Shown: positions 4,575 to 34,433, counted from the first letter of the stretch. The stretch: 64,000 bases of DNA from a bacterium (GCA_021812345.1 JAKANP010000002.1:6394-70393), one strand, 5' to 3'. Program-made: numbers and translations. The notes: a model not told the origin generated them from the letters alone.

Positions 4575-4847
4575 ATGCCAAAAATAAAATCAGCAAAAAA
4601 AGCTTTAAGGCAAAATATCAGAAGAAGAGAAAAGAACAACGAAAGAAAAATGGCCTTAAAAAAAGCGGTAAAAAATTTCAAAAAACTCATTGAAGCCAAA
4701 AAAATTGACGAGGCTAAAGAAGCTTTAAAAAACGTCTATAAAATTGCCGATAAAGTCGCCTCAACAAAATTCATAAAAAAGAACAAAGCCTCAAGAATCA
4801 AATCAAGGATGACAAAAATGCTCGGTAAAAAATCATCCAACCAATAA
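4575..4847 (+). CDS. rpsT: 30S ribosomal protein S20
   Basis: MPKIKSAKKALRQNIRRREKNNERK is a canonical S20 N-terminus. The protein is highly basic and 90 aa. Confidence 0.85.
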   Translation: MPKIKSAKKALRQNIRRREKNNERKMALKKAVKNFKKLIEAKKIDEAKEALKNVYKIADKVASTKFIKKNKASRIKSRMTKMLGKKSSNQ

Positions 4848-6556: not shown

Positions 6557-6633
6557 GGCAAAAAATAATTAATTATTAAAATAATAACTAATATAATATA
6601 TTTTTATCGCCCGCGCCAGTTTCTAAAATAAAA

Positions 6634-7962
6634 TTATTCAAATTCAATCAGCTCTTTTTTAGGGATAACTTCACGGCTGGTGGGGATAGTAAAATAAAAA
6701 GTAGTGCCCCTGTTGACCTCCGACTCCACCCAAATTCTGCCTCCATGACGAGTGATGATATTTCTAGCTATATAAAGACCCATGCCAGTACCGTCGGGAG
6801 AAAACTTAACAACATTATCGGCTCTGAAAAATTTGGTAAAAAGCTTATCCATTTGATTTTGAGGCACTCCAATACCGGTATCTTTAACGGAAATTTTTAC
6901 AAACGGTTCATTATCTTCTTTTTCCGCAGAAACGGTGACTTCCCCATTTTCAACATTATATTTAATAGCATTATCCAAAAGATTAGACAGAACCATATTC
7001 AATTTCTGTTGATCCACAAAAACATCTATTGAAGGCTCCTGGGGTTTGGCAAAATAAAGTTTGATTCCATACTGCTTGGCAATAGTATTGGTTTGAGCCA
7101 AAAATTCTTCAAGATAAGAAACAATATTTATCTGTTCAAACTGATAACCAAATCTTCCTTCTTCTATTTTAGAAACATCCAAAAGATCGTTTACGGTTTT
7201 AAGCATTTTTTTTGCGGCCGCAAAACCGGTAGTCACAAGATCTTTTTGATCCGGGGCCAGTTGACTGCTATTTAAACTTTCTAAGGCCCAGTTTATTGCG
7301 GTGAGCGGAGTTCTTAATTGATGAGCCGCAACCGTTATAAATTCCGTTTTTGATTTTAAAAGCTCTATCTCTCTGGTTCGGTTGGTGATTAATTTAACAA
7401 AACCGATATTGTTTCCTTCTTTATCAAAAATTCTGTCGGTAACCACTCTCAAATCAAGTTCCGGCGCATCAAAAGAAACGTCGATTACTTGAGGATAAAC
7501 TCCGGGTTCAGAATGCGTTATCACCGCCGGAGCCAGTGAAGAAAAAACCACCTGCGCCAAAATTTTAAATTTTGGGTCATTGGCCATTGCAGCCGATAAT
7601 TTTATTCCTATAATATCTTCTTTTTTTATAGAAAATATTTCTTGCGCCGCCGGATTAAAAGTTATCACTTCAAAATCATTGCTATAAGCCAAAACTCCTA
7701 TATTAAGGTGCTCAATAATGCTTGATACTTGTCCGGTTTCCGCTTTGACTCGAACATTGGCTTTAGAAAGCCGAAAGCTTAAAAAAACCATCAAAAACAA
7801 AATAAACAAGAGACCGCCAACAACAATCAGCGCTATTCCCGAAGGCAGGTATATAAAACTTATAACAAGAATAATAATCAAAATCGGCGCCAAGTAAAAA
7901 ACAGGCCGAAATTCCGGCTGAGTTAAGTATTGAACAAATTTTGAAGAATTTTTATTTGCCAT
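6634..7962 (-). CDS. Sensor histidine kinase (two TM helices, PAS-like, HisKA and HATPase_c)
   Basis: H-box AAHQLRTPLTAI, N-box LLDNAIKY, G-boxes DTGIGV and GTGMGL. The N-terminus has two TM helices. Confidence 0.8.
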   Translation of the reverse strand: MANKNSSKFVQYLTQPEFRPVFYLAPILIIILVISFIYLPSGIALIVVGGLLFILFLMVFLSFRLSKANVRVKAETGQVSSIIEHLNIGVLAYSNDFEVITFNPAAQEIFSIKKEDIIGIKLSAAMANDPKFKILAQVVFSSLAPAVITHSEPGVYPQVIDVSFDAPELDLRVVTDRIFDKEGNNIGFVKLITNRTREIELLKSKTEFITVAAHQLRTPLTAINWALESLNSSQLAPDQKDLVTTGFAAAKKMLKTVNDLLDVSKIEEGRFGYQFEQINIVSYLEEFLAQTNTIAKQYGIKLYFAKPQEPSIDVFVDQQKLNMVLSNLLDNAIKYNVENGEVTVSAEKEDNEPFVKISVKDTGIGVPQNQMDKLFTKFFRADNVVKFSPDGTGMGLYIARNIITRHGGRIWVESEVNRGTTFYFTIPTSREVIPKKELIEFE

Positions 7963-7968
7963 CTTGCA

Positions 7969-9192
7969 TTAGTTTAGATTGAAAACATACAACTGACCAT
8001 CCAATCTGTTAACAAAATAAAGTTGTCCGCCCGATTCTTTAATATCGGAAATATCCAAATTTTCGTTTGGCGCATTAAATAGAGTAGAAACTTCGTAACT
8101 TTGCAAATCCACTTGATAAAGTCCGTCGTTAAAATAAGCTCCGTTCATTAAATAATCATCCGGTAAAACCAAATCGGATCCCTTACTATTTGAAAAAGAC
8201 AACGCGCAATAAGCAAATTTGGAATCGTATGAAAAAGAACATTTTTCCGGAATAGTACTCAAAACAATATCGGATAATTTAGTTCCTGATTTATTTGTGA
8301 GAGATACGGCGTAATTTTTTGAATCCGTTGAAATAAATTTCATCGCATAATCGAATGGATAGGAAAAAATCGCTCCAATCCCTTGTCCTTGATCAAATAG
8401 ATTGATTGTTTTTTTGTTTAAATCCAAATACCATATTTGTCCGGAATAATTAGAAGATTGCTTTGGCATCATAAAAATTTTGTTTGTATCCGGCCATAAA
8501 ATATTGGAGTCCAATATATTCAAAGATGACAGCAAAGTTATTTGATTTTTTGTAGCTAAGAGATTAAACGAATAGATATTAGCAATTCCTCCTGAATATT
8601 TTAGAATAGCTATTTTCTTACCATCCGGAGAAAAATCAAAAGAACTCACTCCCGAACTTAATTCTTTCCAAATTCCGGTGCTTGAATCAAACAACACCAA
8701 ACTTCCGGAATTAAATTGGATAGCCACATATCTCCCATCAATACTTTGAACCAATTTCAACGGAACTCCATAATTTGACGTGGAAATAATTTTTTCTTGA
8801 AGAGGTCCGGTTATTTCGGAAACTTCTCCTTTATTATTTATGTAAAAAACTCTTTCAGACACGGAAGCCGAAGAAGACGAGGTTGAAGTTGAATGATAAA
8901 TCCAATAATCAAATATATTGTCGTTATTAGTCAGCAAAGATAATTTCTGTTTTTGCTGGTCATAAATTGATTGAGTTGTCGTATCCGTTTGATTCGAAGC
9001 CGAAGACAGGTTGGATAAATTATTTGACGGATAATTTTGATTAGAACCGGAAGATGATACCGGAAGACTTCCTGATTGTTGATTTTGATTTGGAGTTATA
9101 ACCGATGATGATTTTTTATATCCAAAATAAACTCCCACTCCTATGGCAATTACTATAAAAATAATTATTAAAATTAAAATTGTTTTTTTCAT
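7969..9192 (-). CDS. Membrane-anchored PD40/TolB-like beta-propeller protein (hypothetical), distal gene of the T4SS-like locus
   Basis: Start chosen at internal MKKTILILIIIF (ATG at 9190-9192), which gives an N-terminal TM anchor and removes the overlap with the upstream gene. A low-complexity S/N/Q linker is followed by SPDGKKIAI-type PD40 repeats. Confidence 0.4.
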   Translation of the reverse strand: MKKTILILIIIFIVIAIGVGVYFGYKKSSSVITPNQNQQSGSLPVSSSGSNQNYPSNNLSNLSSASNQTDTTTQSIYDQQKQKLSLLTNNDNIFDYWIYHSTSTSSSSASVSERVFYINNKGEVSEITGPLQEKIISTSNYGVPLKLVQSIDGRYVAIQFNSGSLVLFDSSTGIWKELSSGVSSFDFSPDGKKIAILKYSGGIANIYSFNLLATKNQITLLSSLNILDSNILWPDTNKIFMMPKQSSNYSGQIWYLDLNKKTINLFDQGQGIGAIFSYPFDYAMKFISTDSKNYAVSLTNKSGTKLSDIVLSTIPEKCSFSYDSKFAYCALSFSNSKGSDLVLPDDYLMNGAYFNDGLYQVDLQSYEVSTLFNAPNENLDISDIKESGGQLYFVNRLDGQLYVFNLN

Positions 9193-9208
9193 CTGTTGTT
9201 TTTTATAA

Positions 9209-10222
9209 TTACCATTGAGCATGAATATGCGCTCCCGATTTTCTTTGATTGCCGTTAAAAACCGAACTGCAGTCATCATAAAATGTTCCGCTTATTTCAC
9301 ATTTTGCAAAAGAAGCCCCATTTTGAGTTAATGTCTTAACAAACGAATTCCAAACATTGGGATCATTGGAAGACGTAACAACAATGTCCATCGCTCTGCC
9401 TTGATAATGATATGAATTGGTAGCGTGTTTTCCTCCGGTTAAACTCGTAACCATAAATGGCGTGGGAGTGGGGCTTACACAGCCTGTAGATTGCGGAGCC
9501 AATCCAGTTCCAAGATCTACGGTCCCTTGAGAATAAGGACCGCAAACCAAGCTATCTAAAGTTTCCAGCATATTTATGCTCAAATTAACATTGCCGCTGG
9601 TTCCGCCCCTGGAACAGCTGCAGCTCGGGCTACAAACGAAAGGCATAACGCCATTACTAACATCATTAATAATTGACGAGGCATCGGTGCCGGCCGAACA
9701 ATCGGCGCTTTTTGAAAAAGCTACCTCTCCCGGACTTTTTGACAGAATACTTGAAGCTATTTGAGATAAGGTGCTTCTTTGTTCCTGGGTTCCCCCCGGT
9801 TCTCCCGCTCCGCCACTAGTTGGCATTGCGGGAACAGATTGAGATGTGAAGTTTAAACTCACCAGTTGAGGATTTATGGTATTTAAAACAAGATATGAAC
9901 CGGCTAGCAATAAAAGTCCCCAGATGGCATTGGTTACTCTATCTTTGGCGTCTCCTAAGGCAGATTCATTTCCTCCGCTGGCAAGATATTTTATACCGCC
10001 ATAAATAATCATAATAATCGCCAGAGTGCCGGAAATTCCTATGGCATAGTCGTAAAGTCCGGATATAAAAGATGGGATTGAAGAACTGGAATTTAAAAAT
10101 GCAGGATAATCAACATTCACGGCAGTATTAGCAGATTGTGCGGCAAATATCGGCAATGATGAAACAAATTTCAACCCGAAGACAATTCCAAATAAAATTA
10201 AACTGTTATATTTTTTTCTCAT
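9209..10222 (-). CDS. T4SS pilin-like (VirB2/TrbC-type) domain fused to a LAS-family (peptidase M15/VanY-like) cell-wall peptidase domain
   Basis: N-terminus has a signal peptide, a hydrophobic helix, IYGGIKYLASGGNESALGDAKDRVTNAIWGLLLLAGSYLV (the same motif as the six pilin paralogs at 34-36 kb), then a second helix. The C-terminus has SYHYQGRAMDIV (H-x6-D) and HIHAQW (H-x-H), the zinc ligands of LAS/M15 D,D-peptidases. A Cys-rich linker CSPSCSCS joins the two. Confidence 0.5.
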   Translation of the reverse strand: MRKKYNSLILFGIVFGLKFVSSLPIFAAQSANTAVNVDYPAFLNSSSSIPSFISGLYDYAIGISGTLAIIMIIYGGIKYLASGGNESALGDAKDRVTNAIWGLLLLAGSYLVLNTINPQLVSLNFTSQSVPAMPTSGGAGEPGGTQEQRSTLSQIASSILSKSPGEVAFSKSADCSAGTDASSIINDVSNGVMPFVCSPSCSCSRGGTSGNVNLSINMLETLDSLVCGPYSQGTVDLGTGLAPQSTGCVSPTPTPFMVTSLTGGKHATNSYHYQGRAMDIVVTSSNDPNVWNSFVKTLTQNGASFAKCEISGTFYDDCSSVFNGNQRKSGAHIHAQW

Positions 10223-10223
10223 A

Positions 10224-10949
10224 TTATTGAATAGTAAAACTTATAGAATTTTGAGCCGACTCTATCGGGTTTGTGGAATTTTGAGCGGTTAGTCCGACAT
10301 TTATAACTCCTGAATTAATATTTTTTCCGAAATTAATCGATAAGGAAAATGGATCGTTTGCAATCCCTCCGGATTTTTGACTCCCAACAGTCCATGTAGG
10401 AACTATATTATACAAAGAATCGGTATTGAAAAAGAATGGCGCCGACGATAAATCAACCGTTGAATTGGCGCTGACGATATTGCTAAAATTTTTATTAAAA
10501 ATAACTATCTCCGGCTTAACAATCGGTATCGTAATATAATTATCAACAAAAGACACGCTTCCATCAGACGGATTTTCAACCTCCGAAGAAACTCTGACAT
10601 TCAAACTATCCGACGCTGTCCACTTATTGATGGTGAAAGAAATTGATTTTAATCCTTCTCCTTGGGTGTAATATTGATTATTGACATACCACTTAACCAA
10701 GCGATTGGAAAGATCCAATACTTTTCCTAAGTTAGTTTTGTCCTGACCGATTAATTCAAAAGACATATTCACTCTAGACCCGCTACTTGGCAAAATTTTA
10801 CCTTGATACCAATAAGGAGCAAAGCTATTAGCGCTCCAAGAGGACATAAATTGAGGGTCGGCCGCAAAAACACTCGCAGGCGAAAAAATCCTGAAAAATG
10901 CCGACAAAAATATAAAAGCAATTAAGTATTTTGTTAAACGAATTGCCAT
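10224..10949 (-). CDS. Secreted hypothetical protein (signal peptide), T4SS-locus associated
   Basis: N-terminal signal peptide MAIRLTKYLIAFIFLSAFFRIFSPASVFA. Rich in beta-strand-type residues and abuts neighbours with 1-2 nt spacing. Confidence 0.4.
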   Translation of the reverse strand: MAIRLTKYLIAFIFLSAFFRIFSPASVFAADPQFMSSWSANSFAPYWYQGKILPSSGSRVNMSFELIGQDKTNLGKVLDLSNRLVKWYVNNQYYTQGEGLKSISFTINKWTASDSLNVRVSSEVENPSDGSVSFVDNYITIPIVKPEIVIFNKNFSNIVSANSTVDLSSAPFFFNTDSLYNIVPTWTVGSQKSGGIANDPFSLSINFGKNINSGVINVGLTAQNSTNPIESAQNSISFTIQ

Positions 10950-10998
10950 TTGTCCTATTATATCAAATAAAATTAAAAATATAAATGCTTGTAAAAAA

Positions 10999-11547
10999 TT
11001 ATTTTATTAATTTTTTTGAACTCATGGCTTTGCCTGCTATGCCAAATGTTTTATTGAAAGACTCGGGATTGTTCGTGCTCCAGATCGTCAAAATAGCGGC
11101 AACAGTAGTTATCGGCAACCAATCTATACCCGGTATAAGTTCTACCGCTTGAGCAATAATGTTTTTACCGACGCTATTAACTCCTTTTATAAAAAGCCAG
11201 GCGATGATAATCGGAGCAAAGACAAATCTCGTTACCCATATTCCATCAAGAATATCCGAAACGATAGAGATGCCCATGTAAAATATTATTTCAATCAGAT
11301 CAAATCTTGGGCCACTTGATGCAGATGAAGAAATTTGACTCTCTTCATTTTCATCCTCCTCTTCGTCCGACTCTTCTTCGTCATCCTCGTCTTCATCTTC
11401 TTCGTCTTCATCTAAGATTTCCCGATCATCATCCTGAGATTCTTGCTCTTCATCGTCCTCATCTTCATCATCTCGAGAATCGTCTTCTAATAAATCATCG
11501 GAAGAAGCATCTTCGTTATTATTTTTATTTTCTTTTTCTTCATCCAT
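10999..11547 (-). CDS. Membrane protein with extremely acidic (D/E-rich) N-terminal tail, hypothetical
   Basis: About 80 N-terminal residues are almost entirely D/E, followed by 3-4 predicted TM helices. It sits immediately downstream of the VirB4 gene. Confidence 0.4.
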   Translation of the reverse strand: MDEEKENKNNNEDASSDDLLEDDSRDDEDEDDEEQESQDDDREILDEDEEDEDEDDEEESDEEEDENEESQISSSASSGPRFDLIEIIFYMGISIVSDILDGIWVTRFVFAPIIIAWLFIKGVNSVGKNIIAQAVELIPGIDWLPITTVAAILTIWSTNNPESFNKTFGIAGKAMSSKKLIK

Positions 11548-11562
11548 TTTTATAAAGAATCA

Positions 11563-13320
11563 TTAAACCAGACTTTCTTCTTCTCCCAAAAGTTGCTGGG
11601 GTTTAGTAGTAACAATTTTATCTTCAAAATAAGAGGCAACAACTTGAATGGCAACGTGTTTTAACCCCGCGAAAAACAACCCCTGGCCGACACCGGCTTC
11701 AAGCAGTAAATTTTTCTCGGCTTCGGTCAAATTAAACGCTTTAGCAATATTATCTATACTGGTTGGAGATTGTTTTAATAAAAGCTGTAAAGACGAGTTG
11801 GTGACTATCGGTTTTCCATACGGCGAATTCAAAAAGTCATCCACTTCTTGAGTTATAGTTGTAATTCCTAAATAATATTTTCTTCCTCTTTTTGCCAAAG
11901 AAAACAAGAACGAAGCTCCTTCGGGATATTTCATAATCACCCACGCCTCATCAATGACCAAAATTCTTCTTTCCATTTGAGATTTAACGACATTCCAAAT
12001 GAAATTTAAAACAACATACATAGCCACAGGTCTTAATTCTTCCTCTAAATCTCTCATTGAAAAGACAACTAGGCGGTTATTGATATCTATATTGGTTTTT
12101 TGATTAATAAATCCGGCATAGGTCCCTTGAGTATATTTATAAAGACGCTCGGCCATACCTCTTCCTCCTTCCATATTTCTCAAAACTGTTTCAAGGTCGG
12201 ACAATGTCGGTGGCTCAAGATTCAAAAAATTAGGATTACTCGGAACAATATCTCTTGAAGCATAGGTCTCGGTTAGGGCTCTATCCAAAATACCTTCCTC
12301 TTCAACGGTCATATCTCCAAGCATTATTTTTAATAATCCGGTAAGCGTTAAAATGTTTGATTTAAAAACATCGGCCGGGTCTTCTCCTTTGGGAACAATG
12401 GGAATATCAAAAGGATTAACGTGCTGGTCGGAAGTGAGTGAAATTTTAAAATATGTTCCACCGACGGTATCACAAAGATTTTTATATTCATTTTCGGGGT
12501 CAATAACCATCACTTTTGTGCCCATCATCATGGATCTTAGAATTTCAAGCTTGGTGGCGTAAGATTTTCCGGAACCTGATTTTGCAAAAACCACTTGGTG
12601 AGCGTTTTCCAAAGAAAATCTGTCAAAAATTATCAAAGAATTGTTATGCAAATTAATACCGTATAAAATTCCATCCTCGGACGTAAGATCCATGGAAACA
12701 AACGGGAAAAAAGAAGAAATCGGTCCGGAATTCATCGGCGTTCGCACTGCTAATTTATCCTCCCCAATAGGTAGAACCGACTCAAATCCTTCAATTTGTT
12801 GGAAGATGGCCGGTTTTATATAAATAATTTTACTCTCAAAAAGATTGGTGATGACTTCTTCAAGCTCATTTAATTTTTCCAAAGTGTCTCCATAAATGGT
12901 TATATAAACAGCGGAATCAAACAGACGCTCTTGCGCTTGCTGAAGCTTGTCTCGCAAAGCTTCAATATCGGAAAAGGCGGTTTCCAGCATCGGGTCACGG
13001 ACAAAACCTTTCGATTCTTTTTCGGATATTTCGGCTTCGATTTGAGCCGCTTTTTTTCTTAAATTTCTTAGAGCCAAGGCGGTGTCTATCGGATGAGCAA
13101 AAATGGAAATATCAAAAAGTTTTGCCAGATTAATTATCGGAGAAAACCATCCGCTAGAAAGGAATCTTGGGTAAGAAAAAACAAACAACGTCTTGGCAAA
13201 TTTATCGCCTATTTTTATATAATTTTGGTCAACCTCCAAAGCCGCCGGAGAAATTAAATTTTTGACTTCGGATTCTTCCTGCCCCGTGTATGGTTTTATA
13301 ACTTTTATTTCTTCACTCAT
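11563..13320 (-). CDS. virB4: VirB4/TrbE/CagE-family type IV secretion ATPase
   Basis: Walker A FAKSGSGKSYATK and Walker B RILVIDEAWVIM, with conserved VirB4 C-terminal blocks. Start set at MSEEIKVIKP (ATG at 13318-13320), which avoids overlap with the upstream ORF. Confidence 0.8.
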   Translation of the reverse strand: MSEEIKVIKPYTGQEESEVKNLISPAALEVDQNYIKIGDKFAKTLFVFSYPRFLSSGWFSPIINLAKLFDISIFAHPIDTALALRNLRKKAAQIEAEISEKESKGFVRDPMLETAFSDIEALRDKLQQAQERLFDSAVYITIYGDTLEKLNELEEVITNLFESKIIYIKPAIFQQIEGFESVLPIGEDKLAVRTPMNSGPISSFFPFVSMDLTSEDGILYGINLHNNSLIIFDRFSLENAHQVVFAKSGSGKSYATKLEILRSMMMGTKVMVIDPENEYKNLCDTVGGTYFKISLTSDQHVNPFDIPIVPKGEDPADVFKSNILTLTGLLKIMLGDMTVEEEGILDRALTETYASRDIVPSNPNFLNLEPPTLSDLETVLRNMEGGRGMAERLYKYTQGTYAGFINQKTNIDINNRLVVFSMRDLEEELRPVAMYVVLNFIWNVVKSQMERRILVIDEAWVIMKYPEGASFLFSLAKRGRKYYLGITTITQEVDDFLNSPYGKPIVTNSSLQLLLKQSPTSIDNIAKAFNLTEAEKNLLLEAGVGQGLFFAGLKHVAIQVVASYFEDKIVTTKPQQLLGEEESLV

Positions 13321-13333
13321 ATATATATTAAAA

Positions 13334-14020
13334 TTAATTTGCCGGCTGACTTTCTGTCCCGGGCTCTTTGGCCAGCTGTTGTTTGATAGAAGAGGGATTG
13401 TATAAATTATAATAAAGTTCGGTAAGTTCCTGGTCATTTAAAACAACCGCTCTTAAACCGATTCTTTCTATTCCCGATGCGACCTGATCTATCCTCTGCC
13501 TTAATTGAATCAATTGCTGTTCGTATGATTCCTGCTTGTCTTTTTTGCTGTTTTTGGGTTTTCCAAATAATCCGGTAATACTGCTTGTTATTTTTTTGGC
13601 GCCGGCGCTTTCATAAGGAACGACAACAAAAAAAGTTTTGGTCATTATCTCGTTTTCCTTAACAAACCCTTTGATGTATTCAATGTATTCGTCTATTTGA
13701 TTTCTTAGCAACTCGCTCTCTTCCTGCTGTCTTCTTTGGGCCATTTTAGCAAGATAATTGTCTATATTTATTTTTCTGGAATGAATAACTATCTGCACCG
13801 AAAAATCAACGGAATTTAAAAATTCCTGATAATTGGCGGTAATAATGTTTTGCTCCTCTTCGGATTTCAATTCAAAATTTATCCCCGAAACCATAATCAC
13901 CGACCTTAGAGCTCCGCTTTTTAATTTAACAACGCCGTCTTTTATCTCTTCTATATCAACAAATTGCTGAGTTGAATTGGGAGCGATTTGAGTGGTTGTT
14001 TTTTGTTTTTCTTCGGCCAT
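13334..14020 (-). CDS. VirB4 N-terminal-domain-like protein encoded as a separate ORF (possible split VirB4)
   Basis: The sequence ...VKLKSGALRSVIMVSGINFELKSEEEQNIITANYQEFLNSVDFSVQIVIHSRK... resembles the N-terminal substrate/membrane-proximal region that precedes the ATPase domain in full-length VirB4/TraC-type proteins. It ends 13 nt before the ATPase gene, and the ATPase ORF at 586 aa is short for a VirB4. Confidence 0.45.
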   Translation of the reverse strand: MAEEKQKTTTQIAPNSTQQFVDIEEIKDGVVKLKSGALRSVIMVSGINFELKSEEEQNIITANYQEFLNSVDFSVQIVIHSRKINIDNYLAKMAQRRQQEESELLRNQIDEYIEYIKGFVKENEIMTKTFFVVVPYESAGAKKITSSITGLFGKPKNSKKDKQESYEQQLIQLRQRIDQVASGIERIGLRAVVLNDQELTELYYNLYNPSSIKQQLAKEPGTESQPAN

Positions 14021-14068
14021 ATTTTAAATTATACCAAAAATTAAAATTAAAAGATAAAATTCATCAAT

Positions 14069-14605
14069 CTAACGATAATCGATTCTTCGCGCCACTTCTT
14101 TTTCTCCACTCATTCTTCTAAATACCTGATACTGTTCCTTGATTTCCGAGATTGGCTTTTTGGGAACCACCTTTTCTCTTTTGGGAATCGGATTTTTTGT
14201 CGTTGTCATGTCTTGCCACAATTTTGAAATTTGAGAAATTCCGGAAGATGCCAAGTCCAAAGCGCTTCTTTTGGATTCCACCGTTTGTGATTTAACTTGA
14301 GGAATTTCAAAAGTTTCTTTTATTACCGGCCTTTTCCACAAGAACATTTTAGGTTGCCAAAAAAACTTGGCCGCTAAAAACGCAAGCATATAAAGAGGGC
14401 GCCCATTGATTTTGATGAAAGCAAAAGAAATACCGAAAGACATCAAAACTATAAAAATAAGCACCCAAATTGCCGTATTTAAAATAAAAAACAGAAAAAA
14501 AGAAACCAAAGCCGGGGCCGCGATAAAACCAAATTGCTTCAGCGTAAGCGGACCGACTATTTTCGATTCAATATCAATAAATTGCGGAACTTCAAATTGC
14601 GCCAT
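14069..14605 (-). CDS. PrgI/VirB3-like small membrane protein
   Basis: MAQFEVPQFIDIESKIVGPLTLKQFGFIAAPALV followed by two TM helices, the PrgI-family layout. It sits directly upstream of the VirB4 genes, as VirB3/PrgI does in T4SS operons. Confidence 0.5.
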   Translation of the reverse strand: MAQFEVPQFIDIESKIVGPLTLKQFGFIAAPALVSFFLFFILNTAIWVLIFIVLMSFGISFAFIKINGRPLYMLAFLAAKFFWQPKMFLWKRPVIKETFEIPQVKSQTVESKRSALDLASSGISQISKLWQDMTTTKNPIPKREKVVPKKPISEIKEQYQVFRRMSGEKEVARRIDYR

Positions 14606-14675
14606 ATTTTAAATTATACCAAAAAATAACGGGTAAAAGCCAATTTATGCCTTAAAATAACTGGATAAAATAATC

Positions 14676-15926
14676 TTATTTTTTGATGGTCAAATTACCC
14701 AAATCAATCATTCCGCCTCCATTGTTATTGATTTTATCTTCCGGCTTGTTTCCCAAAGGAAATTTGTTCGTCTGAGGATTTAAAGGCGCATTCGAAACTG
14801 GCGTTTTAGAATTTTCAAAAGCATTGTTTAAATTATTTGTTTTTATCTGATTATCTAAAGTCGTTTTGAAATTGCTGAAATGAACCGTTTTAACCGGCTC
14901 TTCCTCATATTTTTTTACCACAACCGGGACCTTTTGAACCGGTTGATTGGATATCGGTTTTATCTGCGATGGCATTTCTATTTTTGCCGATGAAACAAAA
15001 TTTTGAGGCTTTGCGGTCCCAAATGATTTCATATCGGAACCAAAGAATCCTCCAAAAGAAGACGGCGCAAAATTTTTAATTGTTTGCGACTGAGCAATGC
15101 TTTGAGATTCCTCTTTCTTGTGAAGAATCACCGGACCCTCGGGGAAAGATTGCTTAGGAGTTGCCTGAGGGGATTGATTGGGCGTCTGATTTAAGGAATT
15201 AGCCGGTTGATTGGTCATATTAATTGGCTGACTAGCGGGTTGCTGGTTGATTTTATTCTCCTGATTAATAATTGGTTTTGCAAAAGTTGGAGGCACATTC
15301 GGATTGAAGCCAACTTGTTTTTGGGTGACCGGATTGACGGAAGAATTTGGATTATTAACACTTGACGGCGACAAAAAGTTTTTTGACGCTTGAGCGCTTG
15401 AATTGATTTGAATATTTTCCAAAGAAACAGGCTCCGGTTCTTTGGGTTTGGATGGAGTTCCTTCAATTTTTAATTTAATCGGCTGAGACGATGAAGGTTG
15501 GTTTTTTAAATCAACTATTTCCGGATTTTTTTCTTTGAGCACTACTTGTGGAGAGACTTGACCCGGCTCTATAATTTCGGATTCTTTAACAGTCCCAAGT
15601 TTTGATTTTACATAATTTTCTTCTATGTCTTTTTTAAAAGGAGATAATATTTTGTTGTCAACTTCATGATATATTTCCAAAGCCAAACGCGGATCTACTT
15701 GAAGATCATCTCTTATTTCTTTGTATAAATCTTCGGTGTGAATAAGGCCGTAAAAAACTCCTCTAATTAATCTGCCTAAACTTGAAATTTTATTGTCGCT
15801 CAAATTATATTTTTTCTGTATAGAATCTATTTCGTTAAAAACTGTTTGAGAATGAGAAACATCCCGCAAAATATCGGGCATATTATTCCATCTATCCAGT
15901 ATTTGTTCTCTTGTTGGTGCGTACAT
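14676..15926 (-). CDS. Hypothetical protein, globular N-domain and P/Q/N/S-rich low-complexity C-terminal half
   Basis: About 140 aa structured N-terminus, then a long proline/glutamine/asparagine-rich segment. Lies between the VirB6-like and PrgI-like genes. Confidence 0.35.
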   Translation of the reverse strand: MYAPTREQILDRWNNMPDILRDVSHSQTVFNEIDSIQKKYNLSDNKISSLGRLIRGVFYGLIHTEDLYKEIRDDLQVDPRLALEIYHEVDNKILSPFKKDIEENYVKSKLGTVKESEIIEPGQVSPQVVLKEKNPEIVDLKNQPSSSQPIKLKIEGTPSKPKEPEPVSLENIQINSSAQASKNFLSPSSVNNPNSSVNPVTQKQVGFNPNVPPTFAKPIINQENKINQQPASQPINMTNQPANSLNQTPNQSPQATPKQSFPEGPVILHKKEESQSIAQSQTIKNFAPSSFGGFFGSDMKSFGTAKPQNFVSSAKIEMPSQIKPISNQPVQKVPVVVKKYEEEPVKTVHFSNFKTTLDNQIKTNNLNNAFENSKTPVSNAPLNPQTNKFPLGNKPEDKINNNGGGMIDLGNLTIKK

Positions 15927-15946
15927 AAAACAATCAAATTAATCTA

Positions 15947-18151
15947 TTATTTTTTTGAACCTCCGGCAGGTGGTGCTGATGGAGCACTACTAGATGAGCT
16001 TTCTCTATATGCATTTCCCGCAGCCATATCCCCCAAAACGCTTTTTTCCACTCTATTTCCTAAACGTTGTCCTACTAAACCAAATTCTCTGAGTTGATCC
16101 TGGAATCCTTTGAGTTCAGTAGAATTTAATTTATCCACCCCACTATCATACGCTTTCTTTAACGATCCGGTTAGTTCAGCCTCCTTTGTCACGGCTTTTA
16201 TTAAAGTCTTCATTAAATATGTTTGCTGATCCGGTTTTACCCCTCTAAGCGCCCCGTAAAATCCATTACCCGATGTTTCGTTGTTTATATAATTGGCGTG
16301 AGCAAGACGGTCATGTTTTTCTGATTCCGAAAGGCTTTTTTCATCAACACCGAACATATTTTGGCTGATAATTCTCTGATTGTCAGAACTATTATATTTA
16401 TTATCAAAGGCGGTCCTAGCATCACTCAACCCTTTTTCGGCACTACTAAAAGGCTCCAATTCCTTTTTATAGTCATCGTCAGAAATTTCTCCTTTCAAAG
16501 CCCTTAATTCCAATTCAGTCCTTTTTTTAATACCATCAGAAGTGTAAATAGAGTCATATTTTTTACGAGCTTCTAAAGTTGATCTATTGTCGCTAGCCGC
16601 AACATAAACTTGATCGGCAGCTTTTTTATTTCCTTCTCTTTCCAATTTTTCTCCGAAAGATACCAAGGACTCTCTCCCGTCTTTATCATTTCCATACCCC
16701 AAACTTTTTATAACACTCGGATCAATTCTGCCTTTTTCAGCAAGAGACTGCATCAATCCCTCTTTATCTTGACCACTGACTGATGACGCTAATTTCTTGA
16801 CATCTTCCGGATTTAGAGCGGCATACATTCTTCTGCGTTCTTCTCTGTACTCCGTCTCTTTTTTGCGAACAGATGTTTCACCTCGAGTTAGCCCCCTTGC
16901 AACTGCGCCAGCCCCAAGAAATCTTCCGACCCTAGTATTGGCGGCCCACTGAGCTCCTTTTTTTACCGGAGTTATCATTGGTCTGCCGACTCTTGCCGCA
17001 CCTCTTGTAGTTTTATTTTTAGCCCATCCTTGAGCCTTACTGGTAGCTTTGTTCGCTTGTTTTAATATAAAACTGCTTCCGGCCATTCCTAAACTTTGAG
17101 AAATTTTAAGACCTCCTATAAGTATCGCTCCGGACATTAAAGTAAGCATTATAGCATCAAATCCGTGGACCCCTCCCGTCTGATCAGGAGAGCCACTTAG
17201 GCCCGTAAAACCAAGGGACGATGAATTGCTCATCATTATCATTGATAATTTTACAAAAAGAAGCATTAGCGGAGCGAAAAATACCCATTTTAAAAAATGA
17301 GTCCACCAATCACGCCAAAATCTGTAAGCAGAAGGAAATATCCACAAAAGCCACGCGCCAGGAGCCAAAATAAGCAAAAACGATATATAAAAATATCTCA
17401 ATAAAAACATAATTGCCATAACCAACAAAACAAAAGAGACGAAAACCGCAACCAATATTTGAATAAAAAGATTTATTACATCTCCTATGTTTTGTATATC
17501 GCCCTGTAAATCTTTTGAAGCCACGTTCATCACGGTAGAATTTGACGTTAATACACTACTTACCTTACTGTTTTCAAGAATCATCATGCTGACCTTGTCG
17601 CTTACTTGCGCGGGGTCGTTTCTATTTGCTATGTTTTGGTTTAATGTGATATCTTGCAAAAAAGAATTTGAAAAAACGTCCGAAACTTTAATAATCGCTC
17701 CACCGATCATCAAACTAAAATTTACAATCAAAGCGGCGACCACCAATTTCCATAAGATTGATTGCGCTTGATAACTTTTTATTCTCAAAATAGTAGCGAT
17801 AGCAATAATGATTATCCCCAGAACAAATCCTAAATTAGCCAAATCCCTAAAAGTAGTCCAGCCTTTATATACAAAACTGTTTTGGTCAAAAATCTGGGTA
17901 GTAATTTTTTGAGTTAAAGTCAAAGAAGCGGCGGTTAAAGTGGCAGCGAGCTTCATTATCCCCGCCACTAGAATGTCTTTTATCGTAAGCATTACTTTCT
18001 GAAAAATATCGGAAATGGCGCTTCCAGCAACACTACCTAGACCAAAGATGGCAGCGTTGGCTTCTTTATAAGAAAAAGAAAACATCAAAAACAACATCAG
18101 GCAAAAAATGATGATCTTGTTGTATTTTTTGAATATTTTATTTCTTTCCAT
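15947..18151 (-). CDS. VirB6/TrbL-like polytopic inner-membrane protein with long hydrophilic C-terminal extension
   Basis: Signal peptide, then at least 6 TM helices over about 350 aa, then a roughly 370-aa charged cytoplasmic tail. This size and topology is typical of TrbL/VirB6 in T4SS loci. Confidence 0.5.
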   Translation of the reverse strand: MERNKIFKKYNKIIIFCLMLFLMFSFSYKEANAAIFGLGSVAGSAISDIFQKVMLTIKDILVAGIMKLAATLTAASLTLTQKITTQIFDQNSFVYKGWTTFRDLANLGFVLGIIIIAIATILRIKSYQAQSILWKLVVAALIVNFSLMIGGAIIKVSDVFSNSFLQDITLNQNIANRNDPAQVSDKVSMMILENSKVSSVLTSNSTVMNVASKDLQGDIQNIGDVINLFIQILVAVFVSFVLLVMAIMFLLRYFYISFLLILAPGAWLLWIFPSAYRFWRDWWTHFLKWVFFAPLMLLFVKLSMIMMSNSSSLGFTGLSGSPDQTGGVHGFDAIMLTLMSGAILIGGLKISQSLGMAGSSFILKQANKATSKAQGWAKNKTTRGAARVGRPMITPVKKGAQWAANTRVGRFLGAGAVARGLTRGETSVRKKETEYREERRRMYAALNPEDVKKLASSVSGQDKEGLMQSLAEKGRIDPSVIKSLGYGNDKDGRESLVSFGEKLEREGNKKAADQVYVAASDNRSTLEARKKYDSIYTSDGIKKRTELELRALKGEISDDDYKKELEPFSSAEKGLSDARTAFDNKYNSSDNQRIISQNMFGVDEKSLSESEKHDRLAHANYINNETSGNGFYGALRGVKPDQQTYLMKTLIKAVTKEAELTGSLKKAYDSGVDKLNSTELKGFQDQLREFGLVGQRLGNRVEKSVLGDMAAGNAYRESSSSSAPSAPPAGGSKK

Positions 18152-18161
18152 ATAATTTTAT

Positions 18162-19703
18162 TTATTGAGCGGGGCAAGAAAAAGACGATAAGGCGCTGTT
18201 AAAATTACTCAACATCGTTTCGGTTGTGCCTGTTTGTCCGGAGCCGGCCATTTGCGCATCACCAATTATCGTCTTGTTGGCATCATTGTTTATAAAATCA
18301 TTATATGTTGATTGAGCTTGTGCAACGGCGCTGTCATCCGAATAATCGAGATTATTAAGTGTGTCCAAATTAGCCGAAGCTTCGCTTGCCACAGAGGAAA
18401 ATCCTTGTTGAAAAGTATTTAACGCGTCTAAAGCCGATGAAATTGTCATTTGCACCATATTACCGCCTCCCTGGTCAACAGAAATTAAAGAAGAAGAACA
18501 GGTATTATTGAAGTTAGTTGCCAAAGCAATGTCGGCATTAACAGCCGGAAGCAAAACGCCATTTACATAATTACCCACATCAGTATAAGCTTTAACAGCA
18601 TCGGACAAAGATTGCTTGTTGGCGCTTATTTTGTCATTTTGAATATTTTGCGGAATGTCTGAATTATTAATTCCTTGATTTGTCCCGCTAACCGACCATT
18701 GGCTTCCGTTGCTACTTACATGATTTAATCCTTCTGTTAATATTCTAGACGCTAAAGCGTTCAAAATTGCCGCTAAAGCGCTCTGGACATTTGAAGAATA
18801 CTGAAAATTGGCTCCCACTGCCTGCATTATCGCCCCGGCCGCTACACTCCCGGGAGTTTTCATTTCCCAAGACGTACACTCACTCTGGACAGCATAATTA
18901 ACACAAGCATCGTGTTGCGGGTCTCCTTGACATGTACTTTCGGCATCAGCTAAAGCTTTTTGGTCAGTGCATACTTTGTTGTCGGTAAATCCTTGTGAAG
19001 CGACCGCTTGAGTTTGCGCGATAGTGCTTTGAAGCGCTATTTTTTTATTTACCGCATCTTCAAGATTGCTCCATGCCAATGCCGAATCAACCTGAGGAGA
19101 AATTAAAGCGTCAAAGGCCGACCACCCCATATCGGTAAAAATTGATACCGGTCCGTTAGGATTTTCTATATTTCTTTTTATGTCGTCAAAGGTGCATTGC
19201 GTGGGAACTCCGTAGTATTGGTCGCCACTGCCTCCATATCCATACTGCTGAGCCAGGATTCCCAATCTCGCCTGGAATTGGACACCCAAAGGAGCGCAGA
19301 GATTAACGGTCCCGTTTGATAAATTATTAACATATTGTATTGCCGTACCTACCCCGATGTCGGTAGCGGCTTGTCCCAAATATTGCCCCCAATCGTTTAT
19401 ATATCCTGAACCGCTACCGCTCCCTCCAGAACTGCCATTTATTTGAGCTACGATATCTCTTTGCATTTTTGAAATAACAATGGCCACAATTATATCCCTG
19501 TAATGTTGTTGAATTTCTGTCCAGGTGGTTGCTAGATATTTTTGCAAAGCCATTTGTAATATGGCCGGAATACTACCGATTTGAAATGTTGGCCAACCTG
19601 CCTGAGCCACCTTTGGGCCAGAATTAAAAACTCCAAAAAAGTTTACGGAAATCACGGAACAAACAACAAACAGAATAATTATTTTTTTTAAAAATGAATT
19701 CAT
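18162..19703 (-). CDS. Secreted hypothetical protein (signal peptide, Gly/Ser linker), T4SS-locus associated
   Basis: N-terminal signal/TM MNSFLKKIIILFVVCSVISVNFFG, a GSSGGSGSGSG linker, and a Cys-containing extracellular domain. It overlaps the upstream gene by 4 nt, suggesting operonic coupling. Confidence 0.4.
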   Translation of the reverse strand: MNSFLKKIIILFVVCSVISVNFFGVFNSGPKVAQAGWPTFQIGSIPAILQMALQKYLATTWTEIQQHYRDIIVAIVISKMQRDIVAQINGSSGGSGSGSGYINDWGQYLGQAATDIGVGTAIQYVNNLSNGTVNLCAPLGVQFQARLGILAQQYGYGGSGDQYYGVPTQCTFDDIKRNIENPNGPVSIFTDMGWSAFDALISPQVDSALAWSNLEDAVNKKIALQSTIAQTQAVASQGFTDNKVCTDQKALADAESTCQGDPQHDACVNYAVQSECTSWEMKTPGSVAAGAIMQAVGANFQYSSNVQSALAAILNALASRILTEGLNHVSSNGSQWSVSGTNQGINNSDIPQNIQNDKISANKQSLSDAVKAYTDVGNYVNGVLLPAVNADIALATNFNNTCSSSLISVDQGGGNMVQMTISSALDALNTFQQGFSSVASEASANLDTLNNLDYSDDSAVAQAQSTYNDFINNDANKTIIGDAQMAGSGQTGTTETMLSNFNSALSSFSCPAQ

Positions 19704-20548
19704 TTATTTAAATTGTATTGTTTTATTATTGAATCATACAAAACAACCAGCTCTTGAGATTCACTCGTTATCTCTGTCGCTCCGTCAGTTGATGCGATAT
19801 ATGCCTTAATCGGGTCATTGTCTCCATTCCTTATGGCCCCAAAAACGATGGCCGAATTTTTTAAAAATATCAAAGATTTTTCATGGAACATAACCAAACT
19901 TGACGGGACTCTTAACCCTATAAGTTTATCATATCCTGAATTAAAATCCGAGATTAATTGGTCCAGTTGTTGAGTATTTCCATTATTTACAGCATCGGTA
20001 ACAATCTTGCTTATTTGCTGGGGATCGGAAATAAATGTATTGGCGGCTTGAGTAAAAATAATTGAATATTGTTGGCCATAATTTTGTATTGATTGCAAAT
20101 CATCGTTGTTAGTTATCAAAATGCTCGATGTGGCGATAGATGAAATCATTCCCAAAGGGTTATTTTTAAATTGATCCATTAATTTATTAACATCCACCGA
20201 CGAGCTGGCGGAATTTATTTGGTCAACCAATGATTGAGAACTAGTGCTATTGGTAAGATTAATTTTTGAAAGAAATTGAGATGCTACGCTGTTTGATATC
20301 TGATCCGTTAAATTTGAAGGCGCAACAATGTTTGTGCTCGTTGAATTTTGTTGCGACTGAGATAAAGAAGATTGTATAGAATTTATATAAGGAGCCGAAG
20401 AACTGTCTTGAGCAGAATTATTTATCGTAATAGGAGATCCCCCTTCCGAACTCAAAGAGTTCCCCAGAAATCCGGACATCAGCCAATAAACGACAAAAAT
20501 AATCGTTATTAAAATAAAAACAGCAAAAATTTGATGCTCCTTGCTCAT
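19700..20548 (-). CDS. Membrane-anchored Ser/Asn-rich hypothetical protein, first gene of the T4SS-like locus
   Basis: N-terminal TM helix IFAVFILITIIFVVYWLM followed by an S/N/Q-rich extracellular region. Confidence 0.4.
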   Translation of the reverse strand: MSKEHQIFAVFILITIIFVVYWLMSGFLGNSLSSEGGSPITINNSAQDSSSAPYINSIQSSLSQSQQNSTSTNIVAPSNLTDQISNSVASQFLSKINLTNSTSSQSLVDQINSASSSVDVNKLMDQFKNNPLGMISSIATSSILITNNDDLQSIQNYGQQYSIIFTQAANTFISDPQQISKIVTDAVNNGNTQQLDQLISDFNSGYDKLIGLRVPSSLVMFHEKSLIFLKNSAIVFGAIRNGDNDPIKAYIASTDGATEITSESQELVVLYDSIIKQYNLNK

Positions 20549-20576
20549 TTAAATGAATTATAATATTTATTTTATA

Positions 20577-21362
20577 TCAAAACAATAGAGAAATTTGATA
20601 AGCATCTTGCTGAGTCATATCTTGAGGTCGAATATTTTTATTTAAAGAATGTTCTTTAAAAACCGATGCGATAGTGTCCTTATTATACCCTCCAAAAATC
20701 AGGTTATTGACCAATGTTTTTCTCGGTTGCTTGAATGCTTTTTTTATAAAAGAATAATATTTATCGGCATTATTCCAATTAACATCATCTTTTAAATCCA
20801 ATTCCAATACCGCCGATTCCACTTCCGGCGAAGGCGCGAAATTTCCCGATGCAACCGATATTATAATTTTTGGTTCCGCCCAAAATCCGACGCTCATTGA
20901 AAGCAGGCTCGAATCGGGAGCTTTGGCGCAAATTCTTTGCGCCACTTCTTTTTGGATGAGCAAAATTGTCTTTATGGGTTTGATTTTCAGCTCTCCGATA
21001 ATTCGCAAAAGATGGCCTGTTATGTAATAAGGAATGTTGCCGACGAGTTTGTATTTGGTATTTTGTATTTGGTATTTTGTATGCAAAATTGGAAGAATTT
21101 CTAAAACATCTCCATAGATAATTTCAATGTTTTTGTCTCCTGAAAATTTTTCTTTCAAGCCATCTATTAATCGCCCATCTTTTTCGATGACAATTATTTT
21201 GACGTCTTTCCCTTCTGCGAATTTAATTATCTCTTCAGTTAATTCTCCGTGGCCGGGCCCGATTTCAACAATAATTTCTCCGTTTTTTATTTCTACGGCT
21301 TGAGCTATTTTTGATAAAATCGTTTTATTTTTTAAAAAATGTTGTCCTAAATATCTTGGCAT
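20577..21362 (-). CDS. rsmA: 16S rRNA (adenine1518/1519-N6)-dimethyltransferase RsmA/KsgA
   Basis: MPRYLGQHFLKN start, SAM-binding EIGPGHGELTEEI, and a C-terminal KsgA fold. 261 aa. Confidence 0.85.
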   Translation of the reverse strand: MPRYLGQHFLKNKTILSKIAQAVEIKNGEIIVEIGPGHGELTEEIIKFAEGKDVKIIVIEKDGRLIDGLKEKFSGDKNIEIIYGDVLEILPILHTKYQIQNTKYKLVGNIPYYITGHLLRIIGELKIKPIKTILLIQKEVAQRICAKAPDSSLLSMSVGFWAEPKIIISVASGNFAPSPEVESAVLELDLKDDVNWNNADKYYSFIKKAFKQPRKTLVNNLIFGGYNKDTIASVFKEHSLNKNIRPQDMTQQDAYQISLLF

Positions 21363-21385
21363 TTTTTATTTTATTAAAAATTTAT

Positions 21386-23191
21386 TTAATCATACTCTAT
21401 ATATCTTTCTTCGTCATCAAAAGCGCGCTTACCGGCAAACTCAAGATTATTTGAAGGAAGCTCGCTTAAAAATCTTGATGGCAAATTATAAAAACTCAAA
21501 TAAAGCTCCTCTCTGGCTCTGGTCATTGCCACATACATCAATCTTCTTTCCTCTTCCACGTCTTGAGATGAAAAAAATGATCTCTGGTGTGGCAAAAGTC
21601 CTTCATTGACTCCCACCACAAAAACAACATCAAACTCAAGCCCCTTGGCAAGGTGGATAGTCATCATATTAATTCCGCTTAAATATTTTTTATCTCTTTT
21701 TTTTCTGACGCTTTCATCAAGGGGAGAGGCCAGAGAAATTTTTTCCAGAAAATTAGGTAATTTTGAAAATTGTTGGGAAAAATAAATCAATTCCTGTATG
21801 TTTTCCAGACGTTCCGAAAAATTCGGGTAAGTTTTTTCAAGCATAGCGATATAATCGGTCGCTTTGATGAAATAATCTATGATTTTATCCGGTTTTAAAG
21901 ATGACTTTAACGGCAATTCTTCTTTTATTTTTAAATATGTTTTTTTATAAAAATTTTTTTCAAGACGCGAGAGGCTAATTTCATCGGACGGATTAGCACA
22001 ATATTTTAGAGCCGCCACTAAATCTTTGATTTCTTTGCGTTCATAAAAAGTGATTGCCCCGAATAAATTGTATTCAACTCCATATTCCAAAAGCATCTGC
22101 TCCAAAGCTCGCGATTGAGCGTTGGTTCTAAATAAAATACCCACATTTTTATTCTGCCTTAAATAACCTGACGCTGTTTGAATGACAAAATCCGCTTCTT
22201 CAAACTCGTCGTCATGTTCCGCAATTTTAACCAATGAACCGTCTTGGTTTTGAGTCCAAAGTTTTTTTGGTTTTTGCAAAACATTATTGGAAATCAATCC
22301 GGAAGAAGAATTTATAATATTTTTAGTCGAGCGGTAATTCTGTTCCAAAAAAATAATTTTTGCTTCCGGCCAGTCTTTTTCAAAATTCAAAAAATTCCTG
22401 AAATCGGAAAATCTGAACCCATAAATCGCCTGCTGATCGTCTCCGACAACATTTATGTTTTTGTGCGCCTCGGAGAGCATTTTAACCAACCGATATTGAA
22501 CAGAGTTGGTATCCTGATATTCATCCACCAAAACATAATCGTATTGGGACTGATATCTTTTTAGGACCTCTTTATTTTTAGAAAAAAGCTGAAAAACTTT
22601 TTCAAGCAGATCATCAAAATCAAACGCATTATTTCTTTCTAAAAAACTTTCATATTCCTTAAAAAGAAAGTAGATTTTTTTAGATTTTTCACTTTCCTGA
22701 AAATCCTCTTCGTCTAACAATTCACTTTTTATTTTAGAAAATTCTTTAATTAAAACTGTTGGTGAAAAATCGGAAACCGATATGTTAAAATTTTTTAATA
22801 TTTTTTTTATGGCGGAGATTGAATCGTCTCTGTCAAAAATCGAAAACGAATAATTTCTACCGAAGAATTTACCTTCTTTTCTTAAAATTCCCGCCCCAAA
22901 AGAGTGAAAAGTTCCGACAAACGGTTCATTTGAAATTTTTATTTTTGAAGAGAAAAGGGATTTTTTTACTCTTTCTTTCATTTCATCGGCGGCTTTATTG
23001 GTGAAAGTTATAGCTAAAATTCTTTCGGGTTTTACGCCTTTTTGAGAAATCAAATAAGCCAACCTGGATGTAAGCGTTTTTGTTTTTCCCGATCCGGCTC
23101 CGGCCACAATCAACATCGGCCCCTCCCCGTATTCAACGGCCTCTTTTTGTTTAGGATTAAGTTCATCGTTCATTGTGTATTGAGAATACAC
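21386..23191 (-). CDS. UvrD/PcrA/Rep-family ATP-dependent DNA helicase
   Basis: LNPKQKEAVEYGEGPMLIVAGAGSGKTKTLTSRLAYLI (motifs Q and I), DEYQDTN (motif II), and conserved later SF1 motifs. 601 aa. Confidence 0.8.
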   Translation of the reverse strand: MYSQYTMNDELNPKQKEAVEYGEGPMLIVAGAGSGKTKTLTSRLAYLISQKGVKPERILAITFTNKAADEMKERVKKSLFSSKIKISNEPFVGTFHSFGAGILRKEGKFFGRNYSFSIFDRDDSISAIKKILKNFNISVSDFSPTVLIKEFSKIKSELLDEEDFQESEKSKKIYFLFKEYESFLERNNAFDFDDLLEKVFQLFSKNKEVLKRYQSQYDYVLVDEYQDTNSVQYRLVKMLSEAHKNINVVGDDQQAIYGFRFSDFRNFLNFEKDWPEAKIIFLEQNYRSTKNIINSSSGLISNNVLQKPKKLWTQNQDGSLVKIAEHDDEFEEADFVIQTASGYLRQNKNVGILFRTNAQSRALEQMLLEYGVEYNLFGAITFYERKEIKDLVAALKYCANPSDEISLSRLEKNFYKKTYLKIKEELPLKSSLKPDKIIDYFIKATDYIAMLEKTYPNFSERLENIQELIYFSQQFSKLPNFLEKISLASPLDESVRKKRDKKYLSGINMMTIHLAKGLEFDVVFVVGVNEGLLPHQRSFFSSQDVEEERRLMYVAMTRAREELYLSFYNLPSRFLSELPSNNLEFAGKRAFDDEERYIEYD

Positions 23192-23217
23192 AAGATTTTA
23201 TGAATTTTCAAAAAAAT

Positions 23218-34362: not shown

Positions 34363-34433
34363 GATTTTTTTATCGTTTACGACCTTTACTTTTGATATAT
34401 TTAATAATAACACAAGTCCAAAATAACTTCAAA

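Follow-up and report, generated by a model that had tools for sequence, protein, structure and literature searches.

What is a secretion apparatus doing in a stretch of bacterial DNA that seems to carry none of the genes for conjugation? The question arises at positions 7969-20548 of a 64,000-nucleotide (nt) stretch (GCA_021812345.1, JAKANP010000002.1:6394-70393; the window), where a sequence-only reading had proposed a minimal Gram-positive-type type IV secretion system (T4SS) core in a Patescibacteria-type genome. Profile and structure tests support the components it named. The genes of a type IV secretion system are indeed present in this region, as an intact cluster. It is very probably a chromosomal, vertically inherited T4SS of the Patescibacteria clade, derived from monoderm conjugation machinery of the mating-pair-formation type MPF_FATA and arranged in a Paceibacteria-type operon form, with a role in host contact or macromolecule transfer. 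We infer that its function is that of a host-contact pilus or transfer machine, not conjugation.

Eleven open reading frames (ORFs), lettered A to K, make up the cluster. ORF calling recovered all of them on the minus strand, at the coordinates first assigned. Their tight packing is also real, with spacings from A to K of -4, 10, 20, 70, 48, 13, 15, 49, 1 and -14 nt. Their shared orientation stands as well, but not as a special trait, since all ORFs of at least 100 amino acids (aa) across 325-28171 also lie on the minus strand. GC content is uniform in the window, without a compositional break at the cluster, and GC skew is negative across most of it. A consensus promoter and terminator scan of 6000-24000 gave the same counts as shuffled sequence and therefore does not set the limits of the operon. 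The eleven genes, the adjoining kinase gene and a separate pilin array are as follows.

Gene A, 19700-20548, minus strand: bitopic membrane protein with an N-terminal transmembrane (TM) helix, an S/N-rich linker and a C-terminal domain of ~150 aa
Gene B, 18162-19703, minus strand: secreted protein of 513 aa, directly upstream of VirB6
Gene C, 15947-18151, minus strand: extended VirB6/TrbL-like polytopic membrane protein
Gene D, 14676-15926, minus strand: soluble protein with a helical N-terminal domain and a P/Q/N-rich disordered tail
Gene E, 14069-14605, minus strand: PrgI/VirB3-like membrane protein
Gene F, 13334-14020, minus strand: TrsD-like protein, the VirB4 N-terminal domain as a separate ORF
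Gene G, 11563-13320, minus strand: VirB4 ATPase of the CD1110/PrgJ family
Gene H, 10999-11547, minus strand: small membrane protein with a D/E-rich N-terminal tail of ~80 aa
Gene I, 10224-10949, minus strand: secreted or anchored protein of 241 aa
Gene J, 9209-10222, minus strand: VirB2-like pilin module fused to an M15/LAS zinc peptidase domain
Gene K, 7969-9222, minus strand: membrane-anchored TolB-like (PD40-type) beta-propeller; read from 9222 within the ORF 7969-9279, so that it overlaps J by 14 nt
Sensor histidine kinase, 6634-7962, minus strand: PAS-HisKA-HATPase_c by Pfam, 6 nt downstream of K
VirB2-like pilin array of six genes, 33997-36312, minus strand: matches to PF18895

The cluster encodes a VirB4 motor in two parts. 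Gene G, called a VirB4 ATPase from the outset, matches the NCBIfam VirB4 family NF045971 (CD1110) at 3e-110 and 369.7 bits (cut-off 325), spanning profile positions 182-733 of 752. It also matches Pfam P-loop_TraG (1.8e-30), and its translation carries both a Walker A (AKSGSGKS) and a Walker B (ILVIDE) motif. PrgJ, the VirB4 of the Enterococcus faecalis plasmid pCF10, scores 205.6 bits against the VirB4 orthologue profile. The missing front end lies in gene F, which covers positions 2-131 of the CD1110 profile and matches the TrsD/TraD family NF041427 (1.5e-9), as the earlier label of a VirB4-N-like ORF had it. Genes F and G occupy different frames across a 13-nt gap. A scan of one genome per species recovered 21 related loci (numbered L001 onwards), and 17 of 19 keep the split, by which we reject a frameshift or assembly error as its cause. 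Both parts form a single ORF in L002 (~9230-11755, 842 aa) and L013 (~9374-11701, 787 aa), so TrsD is a detached VirB4 N-terminal domain. Gene E was likewise correctly named PrgI/VirB3-like: it scores 31.5 bits against Pfam PrgI (PF12666; gathering cut-off 27), with orthologues of 32-93% identity in 18 loci. A separate match of gene E to PrgM most likely reflects TM-composition bias.

Gene C is VirB6/TrbL-like by structure and by homology, although the direct profile match that this assignment called for is absent in both Pfam and NCBIfam. When its 59 homologues were scanned, 14 matched PF04610 (TrbL/VirB6; best 4.5e-6), and many carry precomputed TrbL-like domains (PF19590/PF04610). The AlphaFold2 model of gene C (pLDDT 75.7) finds as its best PDB match in Foldseek the R388 protein TrwI/VirB6 (8rt9_F; probability 1.00, TM(target) 0.46). 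A C-terminal cytoplasmic domain of ~330 residues is confidently helical in the model. As modelled, gene C fits the 'extended VirB6' type described in PMC12857230.

Gene J joins a pilin to a wall peptidase. Its pilin module (aa ~46-120) scores 33.8 bits against T4SS_pilin (PF18895; cut-off 26.6) and is followed by a linker and a peptidase domain (aa ~146-337). The C-terminal half contains the motifs GGKH, SYHYQGRAMD (270-279) and HIH (332-334), along with weak sequence matches to the Hedgehog zinc site. Its fold is that of the LAS peptidases, whose metal-binding motifs SxHxxGxAxD and HxH it also carries, and an SLT or lysozyme-like fold was not found in this domain. Because the peptidase motifs are present and conserved among full-length orthologues, metal ligands included, and the pilin domain exceeds its cut-off, 'pilin-peptidase fusion' was the correct label. 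The VirB1-like part named alongside it survives as a functional analogue but not as a VirB1/SLT homologue, the domain being an M15/LAS zinc peptidase. A VirB2-type topology puts the C-terminus outside the membrane, where the peptidoglycan lies.

The extension on this pilin varies between loci. Each related locus examined (L002, L004-L015) has exactly one pilin-domain ORF at the gene J position, and this operon pilin always carries a C-terminal extension, of 175-614 aa. The extension is of M15 type in L001, L004, L005 (two copies) and L006, of a second LAS-like type in L002 and L007, and built of Cys-rich modules in L008-L015; distant pilin homologues carry an SLT domain (P0110) or VanY (P0111). 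One tentative reading of this pattern, which we consider rather unlikely, is that gene J is a 'cargo pilin': a VirB2-type hairpin at the pilus base or tip bearing swappable extracellular modules. The pilus would then carry a host-wall-cutting enzyme and open a conduit for withdrawing host macromolecules, and the T4SS would be run as a feeding tube, not an exporter. Cargo pilins of this kind may be a previously undescribed class, with M15, second LAS-like, SLT, VanY and Cys-rich modules so far.

A second set of pilins lies outside the core. The sequence-only reading had named a VirB2-like component, and the gene J pilin confirms it, but the six-gene array at 33997-36312 had been overlooked. These six tandem genes (114-138 aa), 13.5 kb upstream of the cluster, all score above the PF18895 cut-off (33.5-49.9 bits), and one passes that of TrbC/VirB2 (PF04956) as well, bringing the pilin domains above cut-off in the window to seven. 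Array members share 16-52% pairwise identity and are 17-27% identical to the gene J pilin module. The array is a divergent 'VirB2 array' of the sort typical of Patescibacteria T4SSs, and its products are likely the structural pilins of the same machine. It adjoins a tRNA-Leu gene (33685-33770) and a XerC/D-like recombinase gene (32731-33645). Directly upstream lies a gene for a solute-binding protein (36384-37709, minus strand) and, further upstream, one for a 1,085-aa protein whose sole recognised domain is PG_binding_1 (38119-41376, minus strand); a link of these two proteins to the T4SS is possible.

The cluster is shared across related genomes in a fixed order. All 21 VirB4 relatives come from metagenome-assembled genomes (MAGs) of Patescibacteria/Parcubacteria type (Paceibacterota, Wolfebacteria, Brennerbacteria and Yanofskybacteria), at 55-99% identity. 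The order UvrD-RsmA-A-B-C-D-E-F-G-H-I-J-K is kept in L001-L015, where VirB4 identity is 64-99%; among closer relatives the synteny runs on into the histidine kinase and Fpg genes. Conserved gene order together with housekeeping flanks was found in at least 13 Paceibacteria-type MAGs. The UvrD/PcrA-type helicase gene (21386-23191, minus strand), two genes upstream of the T4SS, is kept in most related loci. PcrA-type helicases assist DNA unwinding in some Gram-positive integrative conjugative elements (ICEs); the linkage here is probably ordinary synteny.

No protein of the region is better conserved than VirB4. Its identity to L002, L004 and L006 is 84%, 82% and 74%, against 51%, 42% and 36% for RsmA; UvrD is 51% and 50% identical to its counterparts in L004 and L006, and Fpg 60% identical in L002. 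Across L002-L007, full or near-full-length matches give 74-85% for VirB4 versus 36-66% for UvrD, RsmA and Fpg, and conservation beyond that of housekeeping neighbours indicates strong purifying selection. Identity is only 21-49% for the surface proteins A, B, I, J and K. Such a contrast is what one would expect if an essential motor were joined to host-facing parts that evolve fast.

Such conservation bears on the idea that the locus is a decaying, functionless remnant of an ancient conjugative element. Conjugation-specific genes were not found in or near the cluster, and VirB4 lies in two ORFs, both of which a remnant would explain. Yet the eleven ORFs are intact, the split of TrsD from VirB4 is a known arrangement (PMC12102498) common to most related loci, VirB4 stays 64-99% identical between species and so above the housekeeping genes beside it, and Walker motifs and peptidase metal ligands are all in place. 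We regard decay as scarcely credible.

Is the cluster instead the mating-pair-formation module of an ICE or other conjugative system, with its relaxase and coupling protein elsewhere in the genome? In favour of this, a single NCBIfam family takes in both VirB4 and pCF10 PrgJ, and the order VirB6-VirB3-VirB4-hydrolase resembles that of prgH-I-J-K. We scanned all window ORFs of at least 250 aa, together with the Pfam-annotated genes 10 kb past each end, ~84 kb in total. The flanks were read from contig DAIERY010000001.1 (GCA_027346585.1), of which the window is the reverse complement of ~40059-104058. The scan of this span turned up no VirD4/TraG, relaxase or VirB11 family, as had been claimed for the window, and the 10 kb on either side likewise hold no relaxase or VirD4 among their Pfam-annotated genes.

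The surroundings are those of a chromosome. Upstream of the cluster lie RsmA, UvrD, UbiA, ComM, DksA, PNPase, the XerC/D-like recombinase, enolase, PPDK and H+-PPase genes; downstream are the histidine kinase, Fpg, RuvA, Mur ligase, M16 peptidase and AI-2E transporter genes. The right flank holds dnaA, dnaN, PBP and RuvC genes within 10 kb, with dnaA/dnaN at L023 1982-4650, ~6-9 kb past position 64000, so the T4SS core likely sits ~50-60 kb from the replication origin. The minus-strand orientation and negative GC skew fit a nearby origin. Within 10 kb on the left flank are genes for two aminoacyl-tRNA synthetases, then serine recombinase and HTH genes.

That left flank supplies one more point for a conjugative element. 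A large serine recombinase of 524 aa (Resolvase, Recombinase and Zn_ribbon_recom domains) is followed by several HTH_3/HTH_36 genes at L022 17315-21011, ~6-10 kb past window position 1, and VirD4-like genes are frequent elsewhere in Patescibacteria genomes (PMC12102498). Genes for aminoacyl-tRNA synthetases, Mur ligase, RuvA and Fpg nonetheless part the recombinase from the cluster, and its region probably forms one edge of a different integrated element, such as a prophage. The nearest recombinases are thus the XerC/D-like gene 12 kb away and this serine recombinase, past housekeeping genes. No integration module at a variable insertion site was found: the same flanking genes recur in at least 13 genomes. 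This fixed chromosomal place, its constant housekeeping neighbours and the absence of a GC break speak against recent integration of an element, and of 3,035 Patescibacteria genomes only 103 have a relaxase (PMC12102498). A conjugative module is therefore very unlikely. As far as synteny and composition indicate, the cluster is a fixed chromosomal locus, not an ICE, and the chromosomal, non-conjugative interpretation first offered for it is upheld by shared housekeeping synteny across many genomes and by the lack of relaxase and coupling protein in the ~84 kb.

A machine without conjugation genes might instead take up DNA or other nucleic acids, like Helicobacter ComB or archaeal Ced, working with ComM and a giant secreted nuclease. 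ComB also lacks relaxase and coupling protein, VirB4 has a weak CedB match, and the window contains both ComM (24907-26439) and a protein of 1,937 aa that combines a staphylococcal nuclease domain with three Lamin-tail domains (43844-49657, plus strand). The T4SS loci of class ABY1 are found together with comF, recG and radA (PMC12102498), and a cultivated relative has been proposed to feed on host RNA (bioRxiv 10.64898/2026.06.21.733656). Against uptake, the CedB score is 54.9 bits where that family (NF041017) has a cut-off of 700, so gene G is not a CedB-type ATPase by this measure. UbiA, UvrD and RsmA genes stand between ComM and the cluster, the nuclease gene lies on the opposite strand at a distance of 23 kb, and ComEC/ComEA were not found among window ORFs of at least 250 aa. 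In Southlakia epibionticum, competence depends on ComEC and is dispensable whereas the T4SS is essential, as relayed in PMC12857230 from Wang 2023 (PMC10633639). The DNA-acquisition role that had been drawn from comM and the nuclease thus finds no specific support and conflicts with Saccharibacteria genetics. We judge an uptake machine unlikely, and return to host contact and transfer as the preferred role. A small lipoprotein-like ORF (43272-43865) precedes the nuclease gene.

Among the remaining proteins of the cluster, searches of Pfam, NCBIfam and PDB sequences gave no relatives for genes A, B, D and I, and gene H has no Pfam or NCBIfam family match. Gene A, the first of the cluster, has a hydrophobic segment at 1-32 and orthologues in the same place in 12 loci; a match to 5nc6 falls in its TM/linker region and is not credible. 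Gene B has a signal-like N-terminus, a helical C-terminal third and near-invariant cysteines (C136, C170, C245, C276, C402 and C510). A word-indexed profile search for it found only 6 proteins; an exhaustive search widened the family to at least 208 representative clusters at E<=1e-3, with no annotated relative among the 208. Single Pfam matches within the family (DUF4141 and others), seen in 1 of 11 or 1 of 81 members, are noise. That gene B is a VirB5-like tip protein or adhesin is conjecture.

Genes D, H and I keep their places in 9, 8 and 14 loci, respectively. Gene D has a conserved N-terminal helical domain of ~100 aa, short conserved motifs in its P/Q/N-rich tail and no TM segment; gene H has hydrophobic segments at 82-155, and gene I a single N-terminal one. 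A 12-bit match of gene I to PrgD (VirB8-like) was rejected, at an hhalign probability of 1.6%. Gene K had been called a PD40 beta-propeller. The propeller holds, because the orthologue profile (A4) matches PDB TolB beta-propellers at 2.5e-6, but Pfam PD40 does not match even at E<=1; a faint beta-propeller Pfam match is on record, and a TM segment spans 9-37. The histidine kinase adjoins the cluster in L001, L002 and L004-L007 and possibly regulates it; no response regulator for it was found in the window. Elsewhere in the window, the 440-aa ORF at 26849-28171 (minus strand) matched no Pfam family even at E<=1, and the 269-aa ORF at 4833-5642 (minus strand) matched no credible one, with only a sub-threshold UPF0158 match at E<=0.01.

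These parts suggest how the machine might work. VirB4/TrsD would dock on VirB3 and VirB6 in a single membrane and drive the extraction of pilins, which polymerise to form a VirB2-type pilus. In gene J, the pilin hairpin would set the attached peptidase outside the membrane, where it could open peptidoglycan for the apparatus, that of the cell itself and possibly that of the host. Proteins A, B, I and K, which are secreted or anchored and evolve fast, would form envelope-spanning, host-facing parts. The assembled machine would make contact with a required host cell and transfer macromolecules to or from it, without conjugative DNA export.

Several points weigh against this account. Gene C itself has no direct Pfam or NCBIfam match, and its Foldseek E value against TrwI (0.039) is weak. 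The absence of a coupling protein holds locally, over the ~84 kb, and not for the whole genome; most Patescibacteria have a VirD4-like gene, usually far from virB4 (PMC12102498). The placement of VirB4 in the Patescibacteria clade is a probable one, consistent with the origin of its relatives. Five of the eleven proteins (A, B, D, H and I) are without an assignable role, and the pilus, its substrate and the direction of transfer are all things that we infer.

The locus matters because of where such systems occur. Patescibacteria account for much of bacterial diversity and live in dependence on host cells, and their T4SS is one of only a handful of machineries with demonstrated essentiality for this way of life. 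Wang 2023 (PMC10633639) described an unusual T4SS in S. epibionticum whose pilins are essential and in which neither a coupling protein nor a relaxase could be recognised, and found T4SS and pilin genes to be needed for epibiotic growth on the host. A 2025 review ranks these as the first T4SSs essential for their bearer and as potentially piliated in a monoderm (PMC12857230), and a 2026 preprint reports tubular structures, maybe T4SS pili, between a cultivated relative and its host (bioRxiv 10.64898/2026.06.21.733656). The description of such systems as functionally uncharacterised is therefore out of date in part, given essentiality in one Saccharibacterium (PMC10633639) and a survey covering the whole phylum (PMC12102498), but it is partly still true. 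What the locus offers is a clean, complete Paceibacteria-type parts list and no new kind of system: eleven syntenic genes, an unusually conserved VirB4, fast-evolving surface parts, a module-swapping, pilin-anchored wall peptidase and a linked sensor kinase. All of them offer something definite to aim at for structure prediction, cryo-electron tomography and genetics in the few cultivable relatives.

Conjugative systems share the core of this machine. With Prg/Pcf of E. faecalis pCF10, the MPF_FATA prototype, it has in common the CD1110 family of VirB4, PrgI and a monoderm envelope, and it is collinear with prgH-I-J-K in its VirB6, VirB3, VirB4 and wall hydrolase. pCF10 differs in having the coupling protein PcfC, the relaxase PcfG and PrgB adhesins and no pilin; its VirB4 is one polypeptide, and its hydrolase PrgK is of another type than that of gene J. 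Among hidden Markov models of the eleven families run against pCF10 PrgC-PcfD, the only credible match was VirB4 to PrgJ, with none for A, B, D, H, I or K. The staphylococcal Trs system of pGO1/pSK41 also keeps a separate TrsD beside the VirB4 ATPase (NF041427; PMC12102498). Unlike the present locus, Trs is plasmid-borne and conjugative, with a relaxase and coupling protein and without VirB2-like pilins. R388 Trw and Agrobacterium VirB (MPF_T) share the VirB6 fold and VirB2/TrbC-type pilins (PF04956), but they serve diderm cells and have a VirB7/9/10 outer-membrane core, VirB11, VirD4 and an SLT-type VirB1, all of them absent here.

The closest match is the Patescibacteria-clade T4SS. In the survey of Quinonero-Coronel 2025 (PMC12102498), VirB4 occurs in 2,417 of 3,035 Patescibacteria genomes, nearly all in one clade nested in MPF_FATA. 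Its associates there are TrsD, PrgI/VirB3, VirB6 and PF18895 pilins, including arrays of 2-11 genes; a coupling protein is rarely adjacent, and KsgA and dnaA/dnaN are common neighbours. The present locus shows the same features: a VirB4 with MPF_FATA affinity, adjacent TrsD, PrgI/VirB3, VirB6, PF18895 pilins with a divergent array, a wall hydrolase near virB4, and a chromosomal housekeeping context beside ksgA/rsmA and not far from dnaA, without relaxase or adjacent coupling protein. These are also shared with SEML1_0006-0019 of S. epibionticum, where the pilin array lies inside the core rather than 13.5 kb from it. The pilin-M15 fusion, the TolB-like propeller and the linkage to a histidine kinase are each absent from the main text of PMC12102498. 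The system is thus of an already published kind, to which these three features are added details.

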